A stretch of DNA of 64,000 nt from Opitutales bacterium (GTDB lineage Bacteria > Verrucomicrobiota > Verrucomicrobiia > Opitutales > UBA953): contig JBILHF010000003.1 in NCBI GenBank assembly GCA_044350605.1, positions 3,401 to 67,400 on the forward strand, in the 5' to 3' direction. The translations under genes were made by a program, and so were the position numbers. Of this stretch, positions 3,151 to 26,186 are shown one piece after another. The notes under the pieces are model-generated. The model saw nothing but the letters and a program-made list of their open reading frames with translations. It was not told the origin of the DNA and did no database searches. How positions within the stretch are numbered: position 1 is the stretch's first letter; each line of letters starts with the position of its first letter.

Positions 3151-3627
3151 ATGCTTTCCCTCGGAAAAAAGCCCAAACTGACCTTCAAAGTGGACGCCTT
3201 CGTGGACGGAAAGGCCGTCAACGCCGCCTTCGCCTCCCTCTTGGACGGTCCGACGATCGTCTCGGTCTACATGCGCAATAACACCTCCGCCTGCGATAAA
3301 CAGGCCGCCGAGATGGACAAAAACGAGAAAGCCATTGTCAGACAAGGGTTTAGGTTGATTGCCGTCTCCCGAGACACCTGTGCCTCCCATGCCAAGTATG
3401 CCGCCAAGCACGGCTACAAGTTCACCCTGGTCTCGGACCCGGAAGACCTCTTCTCCCAGGCCATGGACGCCATCGTCGAGAAGTCCATGTATGGTAAGAA
3501 GTATCTCGGCCCGCTCCGGGCCGCCTACCTCTTCGACGGTGACGGCAAGCTCGTCGGCGTCGTGCCCAAGGTCGAGGCCGCCGAGCATGGCAAGCAGCTG
3601 CTCGCGGCGATCGCCGCGGCGAAGTAA
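3151..3627 (+). CDS. Thioredoxin-fold peroxiredoxin-like protein (Bcp/AhpC-TSA family)
   Basis: From the internal ATG the product reads MLSLGKKPKLTFKVDAFVDGKAV...VYMRNNTSACDKQAAE...ISRDT..HAKYAAKHGYKFTLVSDPE. It has a TxxC peroxidatic-type motif, but the usual Pro of PxxxTxxC is replaced. Confidence 0.6.
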   Translation: MLSLGKKPKLTFKVDAFVDGKAVNAAFASLLDGPTIVSVYMRNNTSACDKQAAEMDKNEKAIVRQGFRLIAVSRDTCASHAKYAAKHGYKFTLVSDPEDLFSQAMDAIVEKSMYGKKYLGPLRAAYLFDGDGKLVGVVPKVEAAEHGKQLLAAIAAAK

Positions 3628-21892: not shown

Positions 21893-22504
21893 ATGGCGGG
21901 TTTCGACGACAGTCTGGTCCGCGAGTATTTCGAGATGAACGGTTTCTTCGTGCGCCAGTCGCGGAAGTACGCCGTCCAATCCCGCCGGAAACGCGCCGAC
22001 GAAGAAGGCGACCTGCTGGTGATCAATCCGTCCCCGCGGCGCGGCGGCGAGACCCCGTTCCAGCTTTTCAGCTCCGACCTGCCGGGCCTGTCCGCCGCGG
22101 TCGTCGCGGTGAAAGCCTGGCACACGACGAAAGCCATCACGCCGACGATGATCAAGAAAGGCGACCTGTTGGAATTCGTCCGCAAGGAAGCCGTCGAAGC
22201 GGCCAAGGAGGCCTTCGCCGACCTCACGCCGACCGAGGGCCAGCCCCTCGCCAAGATCCTGGTGCTGCCGGGCATCCCGGCGACGGAACCGCAGCGCTCC
22301 GAAAGCATCACGCTGCTCCGGGAGAGCGGGGTGGACCATGTGCTGACCTTCCGGACCATCCTCGAGAACCTCGTCCAGGCGGTCGAATCGAACCAGAGCT
22401 ACGCCAAATCCGATACGTTGCAGTTGCTCCGCCTGCTCCGCGTCTACGATATGGTCAAGGCCGCCCAGCTTGAGTTGTTCGGCACCGCCCTCCCTCCGAA
22501 GTGA
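21893..22504 (+). CDS. Hypothetical cytoplasmic protein, 203 aa
   Basis: The ORF has normal codon bias, and its stop overlaps the lpxA GTG (GTGA). I recognise no family. It has a weak nuclease-fold-like pattern (E..GDLLVIN...VVAVKAW). Confidence 0.6.
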   Translation: MAGFDDSLVREYFEMNGFFVRQSRKYAVQSRRKRADEEGDLLVINPSPRRGGETPFQLFSSDLPGLSAAVVAVKAWHTTKAITPTMIKKGDLLEFVRKEAVEAAKEAFADLTPTEGQPLAKILVLPGIPATEPQRSESITLLRESGVDHVLTFRTILENLVQAVESNQSYAKSDTLQLLRLLRVYDMVKAAQLELFGTALPPK

Positions 22505-23280: not shown

Positions 23281-24179
23281 GCGCCCTGCCCATCGCCGTG
23301 ACCTGCGGAGATCCGGCCGGCGTCGGCCCGGAACTCCTCGCGGGCTGGCTGCAGGCCCATCCGGAGCAGGCCGACTCGGTGATGCCCATCGGCCCGGCCG
23401 ATTGGATCGCCTCGCTAGGTCGCGGCTTAGCCGTGGGGCCCGCGGATTTCATCACCCGTCCCGGCCAGCCTGACGACGCCGGGCAACTGATCGCAATCGA
23501 AGCGATGGAACTCGCCGCCCGCGGCACCACCGGCGGTCGCTTCGCCGCGGTCGTCACCGGACCGGTGAACAAGAAAGGCCTCGCCGGCGTCGGCTATGAT
23601 TTCCCGGGGCAGACCGAGTTCTTCGCCTCGCGCTGGAATGGCGAGCCGGTGATGGCGTTCGCCGGCGGCAAGATGACCGTCGGACTCGTCACTTGGCACA
23701 TCCCGCTCGCCGAAGTCCCTCGCGCCGTCACCGGAGCCGACATCCGTCGCACCGTCCTCGCGCTCATCGCCCTGCGCACGAAACTCGGCGACCGCCGTCC
23801 ACGGATCGCGGTTTGCGGCGTCAATCCGCATGCTGGCGAAGGCGGCCTGCTCGGCCAGGAAGACGACCGCATCATCCGACCCGCCGTCGAAGCCCTGCGC
23901 GCCGCCGGCCATGACGTCACTGGCCCGCTGCCGGGCGACACGGTCTTCCATCGCCACCTGCAGGGTGAATTCGACGCCGTCGCCGCGATCTACCACGACC
24001 AAGGCCTCGCGCCGCTGAAGGCCGTGGACTTCTCGACCTCCGCAAACCTCAGCCTCGGATTGCGCCACGTGCGCACGAGCCCTGACCACGGCACCGCCTA
24101 CGATCTCGCCGGACGAAACAAGGCGGACCGCGGCAGCTTCGACGCGGCGATGCGGCTCGCCCGCGTGCTTTCGGCCTGA
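23277..24179 (+). CDS. pdxA: 4-hydroxythreonine-4-phosphate dehydrogenase
   Basis: The product contains GDPAGVGPELL...TGPVNK...GVNPHAGEGG...IYHDQGL...RTSPDHGTAYDLAG. The ATG overlaps the lpxA stop. Confidence 0.92.
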   Translation: MSALPIAVTCGDPAGVGPELLAGWLQAHPEQADSVMPIGPADWIASLGRGLAVGPADFITRPGQPDDAGQLIAIEAMELAARGTTGGRFAAVVTGPVNKKGLAGVGYDFPGQTEFFASRWNGEPVMAFAGGKMTVGLVTWHIPLAEVPRAVTGADIRRTVLALIALRTKLGDRRPRIAVCGVNPHAGEGGLLGQEDDRIIRPAVEALRAAGHDVTGPLPGDTVFHRHLQGEFDAVAAIYHDQGLAPLKAVDFSTSANLSLGLRHVRTSPDHGTAYDLAGRNKADRGSFDAAMRLARVLSA

Positions 24180-24973
24180 TGCGCGCGCTCCTGCTCTGGC
24201 TGGCCACCTGCCTGACGCTGGACGCGGCCGGACCGCGCATCGCCAGCTACAGCCCGGGGGCGACGCAGACGTTGCTCGACCTCGGCTGCGCAGAGGAAAT
24301 CGTCATGGCGACCCGCTGGTGCCCGTTGCCGAAGGATCATCCGGCCGCGCGCGACGCGGACGTCTTCCTACCTGACCTCGAGCGGCTGCTGAAGACCCGG
24401 CCTGACCTCGTGATCCTCCCGCGCATGGCGAATCCTCTCTGGGCCGAGAAGTGCGCGCAGGCCGGCCTGCGCACGATCGTACTGCACGCGGAGGCTCGCA
24501 ATTCGGTGCGCAAGGACATCAGACTTCTCGGCGAGGCAACCGGACGCGGCCAAGCCGCCAGTGAAATCATCTTACGAATGGCGGGCGGCTCAGCGGCGCC
24601 GCCAAAGAAGATCATCGTCATCTGGGATGGCGTGATGGCCGGACCCGAAAGCTATCTCGCCGAGCCGCTGGCCCACGCGGCCCTCCGTTCGGGACTAAGT
24701 CAGGGGGCCTGGGTGAAGTTCGACTGGGAGTTGCTGGCGGCGGCCAAACCCGATGCCGTGATTTGGATTCAGAACGCCGAGACGAACGGGGCTATCGAAG
24801 CCCACCCCGAGAAAATCGCCGAAATGGGTCGGATTCCAGTGATCAAGGACCTCACTTGCGTCAATAAAGGGCATATCTATCAGACTAAAAGCGGTAGCAA
24901 CTGGTTGCCTGGCAGTGGTTTGCAAAAAATATTACCCGAACTTGGGAAACTACGCAAAGAGCTGCACCCCTAG
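24179..24973 (+). CDS. Periplasmic substrate-binding protein, BtuF / Fe-siderophore-binding-like
   Basis: A signal peptide is followed by RIASYSPGATQTLLDLGCAEEIV...LLKTRPDLVIL. The ATG overlaps the pdxA TGA. No permease or ATPase gene is adjacent. G+C drops towards the 3' end. Confidence 0.7.
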   Translation: MRALLLWLATCLTLDAAGPRIASYSPGATQTLLDLGCAEEIVMATRWCPLPKDHPAARDADVFLPDLERLLKTRPDLVILPRMANPLWAEKCAQAGLRTIVLHAEARNSVRKDIRLLGEATGRGQAASEIILRMAGGSAAPPKKIIVIWDGVMAGPESYLAEPLAHAALRSGLSQGAWVKFDWELLAAAKPDAVIWIQNAETNGAIEAHPEKIAEMGRIPVIKDLTCVNKGHIYQTKSGSNWLPGSGLQKILPELGKLRKELHP

Positions 24974-25047
24974 GGTAAATCATCACCGGGAATGCCCTCG
25001 GCCCGATTGACTTCATGCGAATAAAGACGACACTTCAAGTCCACACC

Positions 25048-25299
25048 ATGAACTCCAAGTTCCTCAAGTTCCTCGCCCTCACCGTCGGTCTTCTCGCCGT
25101 CACCGCTTCCTTCGTCAGCGCCGAAGAGAAGAAGGATGGCAAGTGCCCCTGCGAAAAGGAAAAGCCCAAGGCCTCCGTCGTCGCTGAAGAAAAGAAGGAC
25201 GGCAAGTGCCCCTGCGAAAAGGAAAAGCCCAAGGCTGTTGCCGGCGAAGAGAAGAAGGACGGCAAGTGCCCCTGCGAGAAGGAAAAGCCCAAGGCCTAA
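25048..25299 (+). CDS. Secreted Lys/Glu-rich mini-protein with three CPC repeats (83 aa precursor)
   Basis: The signal peptide MNSKFLKFLALTVGLLAVTASFVSA is followed by 3 copies of EEKKDGKCPCEKEKPKA, separated by SVVA and VAG linkers. A strong terminator follows. Confidence 0.75.
   Translation: MNSKFLKFLALTVGLLAVTASFVSAEEKKDGKCPCEKEKPKASVVAEEKKDGKCPCEKEKPKAVAGEEKKDGKCPCEKEKPKA
25123..25296 (+). repeat. In-frame tandem repeat: three 51-nt units with 12-nt and 9-nt linkers
   Basis: The units lie at 25123..25173, 25186..25236 and 25246..25296. Each reads gaaga(g/a)aagaagga(t/c)ggcaagtgcccctgcga(a/g)aaggaaaagcccaaggc(c/t). Differences are synonymous only. Confidence 0.95.
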
Positions 25300-25320
25300 C
25301 CTTCCCGCTCAGGCGATCAA

Positions 25321-25349
25321 AGGACGAACCAACCGGTTCGTCCTTTTTG
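25321..25349. terminator. Bidirectional terminator between the converging CPC-repeat gene and gmhB-like gene
   Basis: The hairpin AGGACGAACC-AACC-GGTTCGTCCT is followed by TTTTT on the + strand and preceded by an A-rich run that serves the - strand. Confidence 0.8.
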
Positions 25350-25354
25350 TTGGG

Positions 25355-25903
25355 CTAGAAAGCCAGCTTCAGCTCGGCCCGGACGAAAGCAGGGAAGTCG
25401 TCGTGCACCGCGAAGCCGCGGGCCGCGGCCTGCGCGAGCTCTTCGGACTTGGCGGCGCCGCTGCGCATCGCGCACGAACGAATGCCAGCATTGAGGCCGG
25501 CATCCCAATCCGTGACGCGGTCACCGGTCATCCAGCAGCGGGCCGGATCCAGCCCGTGCTCGGCGATTTTCTCGAGGATGAAGCGCGGGCTCGGTTTGCG
25601 ATAAAGGGAAGGCTCATCGGGCCGTTCCGGGGCGGCCTTGATCTCCAAGATGCCCGGCGCCGGCAGGGCGAGCAGTTCCAGCATACGCCGATTGCAGGCA
25701 TGGTATTGGTCCCAGGTGAAGATCCCGCGATTGATCCCGCTCTGGTTCGTGAGGATGAAGAGACGGTAACCGGCCCGCAGGCATGCCTCCAGGGCGGGTT
25801 TGACGCCCGGAATCAGCTCGATCTGCTCTTCCCGGCAGGTGTGGTGGTGGTCGCGAATCAGATTACCGTCGCGGTCCAGAAAAAGGGCGGGGTGGCCAGG
25901 CAT
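25355..25903 (-). CDS. gmhB: HAD-IIIA phosphatase, D-glycero-D-manno-heptose-1,7-bisphosphate phosphatase-like
   Basis: The internal start gives MPGHPALFLDRDGNLI...LFILTNQSGI.RG......RKP.P......WMTGDRVTD. The upstream 91 codons of ORF 25355..26176 overlap the rpmF promoter region and are discarded. Confidence 0.75.
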   Translation of the reverse strand: MPGHPALFLDRDGNLIRDHHHTCREEQIELIPGVKPALEACLRAGYRLFILTNQSGINRGIFTWDQYHACNRRMLELLALPAPGILEIKAAPERPDEPSLYRKPSPRFILEKIAEHGLDPARCWMTGDRVTDWDAGLNAGIRSCAMRSGAAKSEELAQAAARGFAVHDDFPAFVRAELKLAF

Positions 25904-26006
25904 CGCCCCAGCCAACCGAACTTGCCCACAATCGCAAGGGAATGGAAAGGGGGCTTGACCGAGGGGGCGGGAGGGGTAGAACCGACCCTCATCCAAGCGT
26001 AGAACC

Positions 26007-26186
26007 ATGGCCAACCCGAAACGTAAACAGTCCAAACGCCGCAGCCGACTCCGTCGTGGCGCCAACCAGTTCCGCGCCCCGAAACTCGTCAAGGATGCCG
26101 AATCCGGCGCCCTTCGTCGCTCCCACCGCGTCGACCCGACCACGGGTAAGTATCGCGGTCGCCAGGTCCTGGACACCGGAGCTTAA
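26007..26186 (+). CDS. rpmF: 50S ribosomal protein L32 (59 aa; below the ORF-track cut-off)
   Basis: My own translation gives MANPKRKQSKRRSRLRRGANQFRAPKLVKDAESGALRRSHRVDPTTGKYRGRQVLDTGA. The gene lies in the classical position upstream of plsX-fabH. Confidence 0.9.
   Translation: MANPKRKQSKRRSRLRRGANQFRAPKLVKDAESGALRRSHRVDPTTGKYRGRQVLDTGA

Follow-up and report, generated by a model that had tools for sequence, protein, structure and literature searches.

What is the use of a short exported peptide that consists almost entirely of cysteine-containing repeats? This question is raised by an open reading frame (ORF) at positions 25048..25299, on the + strand, of a stretch of 64,000 nucleotides from an Opitutales bacterium (GenBank assembly GCA_044350605.1, contig JBILHF010000003.1, positions 3,401 to 67,400 of the forward strand), which is called the window in the following. 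Sequence features, orthologues and substitution patterns indicate that 25048..25299 encodes a real, conserved gene and that its product is exported. With regard to function, we favour, at a probability of roughly 0.45, a disordered, Sec-exported peptide that resembles metallothioneins and would, in unmodified form, buffer or chaperone metal ions, with Cu(I) as a possible candidate.

A conserved gene for an exported repeat peptide

The ORF comprises 83 codons and a stop. As read from the sequence, the resulting protein of 83 amino acids (aa) has the layout MNSKFLKFLALTVGLLAVTASFVSA + 3 x EEKKDGKCPCEKEKPKA, with the linkers SVVA and VAG between the units:

25048..25299, +, gene of the exported Cys-pair repeat peptide, stop included (ORF call, orthologues, and the ratio of nonsynonymous to synonymous differences, pN/pS)
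25048..25122, +, predicted Sec-type signal peptide of 25 aa (sequence reading, conserved N-terminus, AlphaFold2 helix)
25123..25173, +, unit 1, 17 aa, EEKKDGKCPCEKEKPKA (sequence)
25174..25185, +, linker SVVA, small and hydrophobic, resembling the signal-peptide end FVSA
25186..25236, +, unit 2, 17 aa, EEKKDGKCPCEKEKPKA (sequence)
25237..25245, +, linker VAG (sequence)
25246..25296, +, unit 3, 17 aa, EEKKDGKCPCEKEKPKA, with the C-terminal PKA common to 53/63 family members

The putative signal peptide shows a Lys-containing n-region (MNSKFLK), a hydrophobic core and a V-S-A cleavage motif, and AlphaFold2, run with an alignment as input, modelled residues 3-25 as a helix with a predicted local distance difference test score (pLDDT) of about 80. 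For the mature part the score drops to 38-52, which predicts disorder. Neither a lipobox Cys at +1 nor a transmembrane segment or a sorting signal was seen on reading the peptide. A preliminary description, made from the sequence alone, had proposed the ORF, a Sec signal ending in VSA and three near-identical repeats; all of these hold, and the units turn out to be identical at the protein level. The mature chain left after signal removal has 58 aa, the 59 aa given earlier having included the stop. Also in line with that description, the differences between the three 51-nt units are all synonymous, with four differing positions that are all third codon positions. Tandem Repeats Finder delimited an array at 25112/25119-25297 (period 60-63, 2.9-3.0 copies, 88-89% matches), and its period-63 version begins inside the signal peptide. 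It follows that the linkers belong to the duplicated DNA unit, and that in the first copy this unit reaches back into the end of the signal peptide.

A search with the single sequence revealed relatives in 27/36 other species of the same genus and in 0/24 genomes from 24 other families of the order. Using a profile of 16 members (alignment A1), orthologues were found in 88/96 genus genomes. Of the eight misses, three (G064, G116, G117) do have an exported Cys-rich ORF of divergent sequence, which lies immediately downstream of the gene that encodes a periplasmic binding protein, the upstream neighbour of the peptide gene; in two others the contigs end at the locus (G024, G088), and the last three are without a binding-protein match too (G025, G032, G033). 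Altogether, the peptide gene is present in at least 91/96 genomes of this one freshwater Opitutales genus. The window's own genome (G000) holds no paralogue, the second match having E = 0.25, and the '1 TGA' of genome G090 is the natural stop of a two-unit form.

Comparison with the closest species gave a pN of 0.005-0.010 against a pS of 0.08-0.12, and the pN/pS of about 0.06-0.1 indicates that the gene is under purifying selection. Of the two explanations suggested before for the synonymous pattern, purifying selection is thus upheld by the substitution rates, whereas a very recent expansion probably accounts for it in part at most, since three-unit forms are common to many species with differing proteins. 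In one genome (G119, locus L103, G119:C1:178500-184500), the binding-protein gene (about 2540-2600) and the peptide gene (about 3200-3215) are both frameshifted, and lpxA, pdxA, gmhB, rpmF, plsX and fabH are intact. Co-decay of the two genes was considered for this case and set aside; a homopolymer sequencing error is the likelier cause, since one shift follows an A run and the other lies in a stretch of Lys codons.

Beyond the genus, a word-index search of 5.8 billion clusters brought up 282 candidates, of which 134 reached E <= 0.01; these 134 proteins are all nameless or 'hypothetical', and the few source names were Opitutia, Opitutales and Verrucomicrobiota. An exhaustive profile search of 1.84 billion representatives gave 14 matches at E <= 0.001, of which 12 were family members; the two remaining matches (P0125, P0130) are Cys-free repeat proteins and were judged spurious on reading. 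This search showed no member outside the lineage and no fused forms, for whose absence it is the sole basis. In the ESM Atlas the peptide's own cluster scored 0.97, and the other matches, at 0.81 or lower, were nameless. Pfam offered no family for the window peptide or for 11 divergent members, the sole NCBIfam match stayed far below its cut-off (20.6 bits against 95), and no publication was found that contains any of three family motifs. No family model, structure, paper or named protein covers the peptide, which agrees with the earlier impression that this repeat belongs to no described family.

The stretch is present almost whole in 14 lake-water DNA runs, one of which is possibly the source sample, and partly in six RNA runs. 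Expression had been named as a test of the gene, and RNA contigs cover the ORF in 4/4 RNA runs examined, that is, in lake RNA libraries with four study codes. Contigs confined to the ORF had a depth of 272-370 in three runs (X16, X17, X18), with 2-8 on the binding-protein gene and the gmhB-like gene downstream, and in the fourth (X15) ORF contigs had between 158 and about 3000, one that extends into the gmhB-like gene had 336, and the figure for the binding-protein gene was 25; contig depth sums related organisms, the internal repeat inflates word depth, and such figures cannot rank genes. As contigs show neither strand nor ends nor level, we took this result only as presence in the libraries, with a hint of high abundance.

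A proposed role as an exported metal buffer

What has been kept in this family is best seen by comparing its members. The following counts refer to 63 full-length members of 65 collected; L040 (masked stretch) and L060 (ORF off contig) were dropped, and L033 and L035 (125-136 nt only) as well as L039 (ORF off contig end) were also left out. Members with one unit (P0117, P0120), with two, with three and with four (G026) were seen, besides longer mixed forms that measure 140-166 aa, so that the copy-number variation that the preliminary description had proposed to look for spans 1 to 4 or more. Three unit types recur, namely KKDG(E)K-C-P-(x)-C-...-EKPKA; (S/N)HCG(S/K)C(G/D)KKD(E/A)P followed by an Ala/Pro/Thr linker; and (D/E)CPKKCDKDKKDAPAAPATA. 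Equivalent places in the units hold CPC, CDGC(-PS), CPNC, CPNCPC, CC(-P), HCGSC or CPKKC. Homologues with conserved Cys had been another test, and the conserved feature proved to be the Cys pair: 423/443 Cys have a partner Cys within 4 residues, at spacings of CC (19), CxC (80), CxxC (109) and CxxxC (20). The Cys number is even in 44/63 members, and odd counts occur.

The chain that carries these pairs is of unusual composition, with on average 21.9% Lys, 14.4% Pro, 13.4% Ala, 12.7% Glu, 9.3% Asp and 9.1% Cys. Aromatic residues are missing from 51/63 mature chains and reach a maximum of 1, and 61/63 are free of Arg in a genome of about 65-70% GC. At the C-terminus, PKA is found in 53/63, PKS in 5, PKV in 1 and PQA in 1. 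Cys accounts for 10% of the window peptide and for 17-19% of the G116 and G117 forms, with up to 19% in G117. These two smallest-genome members (G117, locus L032; G116, locus L034) have a very different version of the peptide, with CC, CCDC and CSSCSSC motifs and a final K in place of PKA. Across the family, unit number, pair spacing and linker type vary freely. As judged from these patterns, the selected element is the closely spaced Cys pair in a flexible, charged, Lys-rich chain that is nearly free of Arg and aromatic residues.

Metal-thiolate proteins, unlike catalytic redox sites, typically show CC, CxC and CxxC motifs that can replace one another. Because the Cys pairs are kept while their number, spacing and linkers vary, we prefer metal-thiolate binding over catalytic redox activity or a folded structure. 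According to this model, removal of the signal peptide would deliver a 58-aa chain with three Cys-Pro-Cys pairs in Lys/Glu-rich segments to the periplasm, where the unmodified thiolates would bind thiophilic metal ions. Cu(I) would be the most likely of these, with Zn, Cd or Hg as possible ligands; the preference for Cu(I) rests on the chemistry of CxC and CxxC sites. Each unit could form an autonomous two-thiolate site, or several units could wrap around one small metal-thiolate cluster, and the protein would then serve as a high-capacity metal buffer or chaperone of the envelope. Metal binding, the identity of the metal, the redox state of the thiols and a periplasmic rather than extracellular location are what we infer here from the gene and its setting.

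For such a peptide to work, its thiols would have to stay reduced. The window's own genome gave no match to the Pfam models of VKOR, DsbB, Thioredoxin_4 and DSBA, and DsbB, VKOR and DSBA were each found in 0/35 genus genomes of at least 90% completeness; control genomes gave the expected matches. A fusion of DsbD_N, thioredoxin and DsbD_TM is present (G000:C151, L073:262-2334). On this evidence, the envelope appears to have a reducing pathway and no canonical oxidising one. A DsbD-type importer of reductant without DsbA, DsbB or VKOR makes free thiols on an exported peptide plausible. The same setting may leave room for the peptide itself to take part in thiol-disulfide chemistry. For an aerobic-looking lake genus, the lack of DsbA, DsbB and VKOR also raises the broader question of how these aerobes handle exported cysteines.

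Known metal-binding proteins provide two kinds of comparison. Metallothioneins, among them modular forms of eukaryotes, are likewise small, Lys-rich and nearly devoid of aromatic residues and Arg, use CC, CxC and CxxC motifs, are disordered without metal and have grown by unit duplication. The peptide differs from them in being very acidic as well as basic. Its Cys content of about 9-10% lies below the roughly 15-30% of metallothioneins, and that of the G116 and G117 forms, at 17-19%, falls within this range. The metallothionein models of Pfam and NCBIfam matched neither the window peptide nor the 11 divergent members. The known bacterial metallothioneins, such as SmtA/BmtA and MymT, are cytosolic, whereas the peptide described here carries the features of a Sec-exported protein. 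Outside the cytoplasm, Csp1 stores Cu(I) on unmodified Cys. Csp1, PcoE and SilE resemble the peptide in being extracytoplasmic and in holding many metal ions on unmodified side chains, and PcoE and SilE are disordered as well; in contrast, Csp1 folds into a four-helix bundle and leaves the cytoplasm by the Tat route, the ligands of PcoE and SilE are Met and His instead of Cys, and none of the three is homologous to the peptide.

The second comparison concerns the peptides made by ribosomes and modified after translation (RiPPs) that bind copper. The sole NCBIfam match mentioned above was to NF050188, the model of the oxazolone/thioamide-modified RiPP metallophore HvfA, with E = 5e-4, and 0/11 divergent family members matched this model at E <= 0.1. 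According to PMC11252979, HvfA is 95 aa long, starts with a Sec signal of 24 aa and has three AEGKCGEGKCG repeats, which contain six of the eight Cys. Both peptides are exported, with a Sec signal of 24-25 aa, a total length of 83-95 aa and a repeat number that varies within the family, and both contain three Lys/Glu/Gly-rich repeats with two Cys each; a repeat length of 17 residues is published for the HvfA family and is also that of the units here. The units differ in reading DGKCPC in the window and KCDGC, KCPNC or HCGSC in orthologues, and EGKCG does not occur. According to PMC12452194, oxazolin gene clusters contain an MNIO enzyme, DUF2063 and DoxX, and the related Buf_EGKCG peptides are modelled as a beta-helix; here the context consists of housekeeping genes without an MNIO/DUF2063/DoxX operon, and the chain is predicted to be disordered. 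The MNIO enzyme (PF05114) was found neither in the window's own genome nor in any of the 96 genus genomes, 35 of which are at least 90% complete, and DUF2063 (PF09836) had 0 matches in the own genome (92% complete); a Caulobacter genome used as control was positive for both. Membership of the HvfA/Buf_EGKCG oxazolin family was rejected on the score, the missing EGKCG and the missing MNIO. Though outside this family, the peptide may by analogy work like HvfA as an exported copper binder. We put the unmodified buffer first because of the metallothionein-like pattern and because the genus has no modifying enzyme of the known class, MNIO.

Several points weigh against this assignment. Nothing in the locus names a metal: a regulator responding to metal, an efflux pump and a riboswitch are all absent, and the promoter alignment showed no palindromic operator. 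With 10% Cys the peptide lies below classical metallothioneins, and each unit offers two thiols. Unmodified HvfA was isolated in disulfide-bonded form and did not compete with bicinchoninic acid (BCA) for Cu(I), as stated in PMC11252979; by analogy, plain Cys repeats may not automatically be good copper ligands. The Dsb results come from Pfam models only and from metagenome-assembled genomes. Finally, buffering leaves unexplained the near-invariant PKA end of units and protein, the strict preference for Lys over Arg and the fixed place beside the binding protein, and these three features keep the ideas of a hand-off and of processing alive.

If plain-Cys metal binding is correct, the peptide would be an enzyme-free natural counterpart of the bufferin/oxazolin copper peptides and at the same time an exported bacterial metallothionein, neither of which has been described before as far as our searches show. 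In kind, it lies between the cytosolic bacterial metallothioneins and the exported, enzyme-modified bufferin/oxazolin peptides. The peptide gene is a core gene of a genus that turns up in many lake-water metagenomes, and contigs over it occur in lake metatranscriptomes; whatever ligand the peptide binds could therefore play a part in the cycling of trace metals or in the metal stress of freshwater plankton. The peptide is also short and simple enough for direct synthesis and testing.

The neighbouring binding protein and other possible roles

The peptide gene lies among lpxA, pdxA, the binding-protein gene, a gene for a gmhB-like HAD phosphatase, rpmF, plsX and fabH, with a BamD-like gene also nearby. 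In the 29 loci first collected, the gene order is pdxA - binding protein - peptide - gmhB-like (opposite strand) - rpmF. The feature of interest for the function of the peptide is the following:

24179..24973, +, class III periplasmic binding protein, 264 aa (PF01497, 3.2e-11; Pfam, model, conserved gene order)

This protein was found in 93/96 genus genomes. Its model (pLDDT 90.3) matched best the structures of the heme binders HmuT, BhuT, RhuT, ShuT, PhuT and HutB, of BtuF and of siderophore binders (E 1e-15 to 1e-10), and a profile-against-PDB search agreed with these matches. The preliminary description had called the binding protein an orphan, which is misleading: it is the sole PF01497 protein of the genome, and one strong FecCD permease and an ABC ATPase are encoded on another contig. 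For this reason, it is probably the working binding protein of the genome's FecCD importer.

The peptide could therefore be a hand-off partner that captures a metal, a chelate or a tetrapyrrole and passes it to the class III binding protein and on to the FecCD importer. We consider this unlikely overall, and it is the rival that fares best. The binding-protein gene precedes the peptide gene in 27/27 loci with enough upstream DNA, and by coordinates compared by eye this order is genus-wide. The genome has this one binding protein of its kind, with one strong FecCD permease and an ABC ATPase elsewhere, and the fold of the binding protein comes closest to those of heme and B12 binders. Nearly all units contain a CP dipeptide, with 2-9 per protein; Cys-Pro is the heme-regulatory dipeptide, and thiolates can ligate cobalt in corrinoids. 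Transfer from a periplasmic chaperone to a binding protein has precedents in AztD-AztC and ZinT-ZnuA. Furthermore, both genes evolve faster than their neighbours; between species, the binding protein is 62-70% identical, compared with 88-96% for pdxA and 92-98% for gmhB. The co-variation of the two is not tight, however, as the peptide of G015 is 99% identical to that of the window and its binding protein 62%. The peptide gene also appears to have its own upstream element and terminator, and where other genera have distant homologues of the binding protein, a small exported Cys-rich ORF was found within about 1.5 kb in 0/27 loci. As to a heme ligand, the Tyr of the HmuT 'VGYMR' motif, which we take to be the residue that ligates heme, aligns with an invariant Phe in the binding proteins. 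Heme auxotrophy as a reason for having the binding protein was rejected, with ALAD present in 34/35 genus genomes, and no tetrapyrrole auxotrophy is apparent. A predicted complex of the binding protein (residues 19-264, alignment A2) with the mature peptide (residues 26-83, alignment A1) scored 0.00 against a mark of 0.32, was run without controls and weighs neither way.

A more far-reaching version of the hand-off, which we regard as quite unlikely, is a new kind of uptake system in which an abundant, ribosomally made, unmodified, multi-unit thiol metallophore or chaperone would capture a scarce metal or metal-tetrapyrrole in the envelope of these streamlined lake bacteria and deliver it to the binding protein and FecCD, with the EKPKA ends acting as a handle for the binding protein or for a protease.

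Some further observations concern the binding protein and tetrapyrrole synthesis. An invariant T-R-W-C-P-L-P-x-x-H segment (residues 45-54) and an invariant C92 occur in 14/14 aligned sequences, and the ligand site may be unusual. Among species with 88-100% identity in pdxA, gmhB and rpmF, the differences in the binding protein are, by eye, concentrated in the C-terminal lobe (about 24480-24973, GC 0.51-0.61), a region that could be a hot spot of recombination or diversification. The sole genome lacking ALAD (hemB) is the window's own 92%-complete assembly of 185 contigs (G000), and with the gene present in 34/34 others an assembly gap is the most likely cause.

Compared with the metal buffer, a role in thiol redox chemistry is improbable. 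As a diffusible carrier of CxC/CxxC pairs, the peptide would then oxidise, isomerise or protect Cys of the envelope, or it would be sacrificed as an antioxidant where the water is oxic and sunlit. Mia40 has CPC as its redox-active motif, and protein disulfide isomerase is mimicked by CXC peptides. The tripeptide Cys-Pro-Cys, which the window peptide shares, works as a redox-active pair even in short peptides. The missing canonical oxidation pathway and the high RNA contig depth figures over the ORF would suit such a carrier. Unlike Mia40 and thioredoxin-like proteins, however, the family has no invariant motif, since CDGC-PS, CPNC, CC, HCGSC and CPKKC occur in place of CPC and Cys counts can be odd; it has no folded domain to tune a redox potential, given the predicted disorder; and no partner oxidase for recycling was identified. 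Peptides with Cys-Pro-Cys are described as 'thioredoxin mimetic' antioxidants in the abstracts of PMC10968419 and PMC11672525, which speaks for the redox idea.

Even more doubtful is a structural role without a specific ligand, in which an abundant polyampholyte would cross-link the envelope through disulfides or lysines or would space its layers. The 22% Lys, the 14% Pro and the AP-rich linkers of the longer forms recall periplasm-spanning spacers, the RNA contig depth figures are high, and the gene, which belongs to the core set, has envelope and lipid genes around it (lpxA, gmhB, plsX, fabH, BamD-like). Against this stand the conservation of the Cys pairs in a chain whose length, linker type and unit number vary freely, and the lack of any anchor.

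Least probable of all is a RiPP-like multi-core precursor, whose units would be cut at the junctions of PKA and linker or whose Cys would be modified by an enzyme encoded elsewhere and of a type so far without a link to substrates of this sort: the architecture mirrors HvfA and the oxazolins (PMC11252979, PMC12452194), there is a weak match to NF050188, unit number varies, units and protein end in PKA, and the linkers resemble a signal-peptidase site, as for released units, but this likeness arises from the tandem duplication itself, whose period starts in the signal peptide, the motif and score are not those of HvfA, and an adjoining enzyme gene was seen in 0/27 loci with flanks. That no maturase gene is adjacent had already been put forward against a RiPP; the neighbours are indeed all housekeeping genes, and the absence of MNIO from the genus strengthens the argument.

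Strand, transcription signals and minor observations

On the opposite strand, an ORF at 25035..25292 is open, and its third codon positions coincide with those of the + frame. Because these wobble positions are common to both strands, the synonymous pattern alone cannot tell one strand from the other. Most orthologues also have an open antisense frame, which can be attributed to composition. What assigns the gene to the + strand is its signal peptide, together with the conserved start codon ATG, the TTGAC upstream of it and the polarity of the terminator; the last two are located as follows:

25007..25012, +, TTGACT, -35-like hexamer, 36-41 nt before the ATG (promoter inferred only)
25319..25351, +, intrinsic terminator with a 12-bp stem, a 4-nt loop and a U-rich tail, between the peptide gene and the convergent gmhB-like gene

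TTGAC is invariant in 27/27 aligned orthologous upstream regions; a scan for sigma-70 consensus promoters upstream of the peptide gene gave 0 sites, and no consensus -10 was recognised. The terminator stem (25319-25346) has a predicted energy of -27.6 kcal/mol (z = -5.0, 0/200 shuffles as stable), and at its position orthologues show three different hairpin sequences, each of them self-complementary. A consensus terminator scan of the + strand did not list this hairpin. The strong terminator and the local GC trough of the preliminary description both reappear here, the former with its U-tail on the + strand. GC content falls to 0.51-0.56 compared with 0.61-0.73 in the flanks, and the drop sets in some 300 nt ahead of the ORF, where the binding-protein gene has its 3' end. 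Riboswitches and other known RNAs were looked for around the peptide gene and around the FecCD locus (L070-L072) and rejected, with 0 Rfam matches at E <= 0.1.

Two minor observations relate to other genes of the window. A 203-aa ORF upstream of lpxA (21893-22504, +) matches no Pfam family at E <= 1e-5. The gmhB-like ORF (25355-26176, -), which encodes 273 aa when read from a GTG, overlaps rpmF (26007-26186, +); since its HAD domain begins at residue 96, the true start probably lies near 25903.

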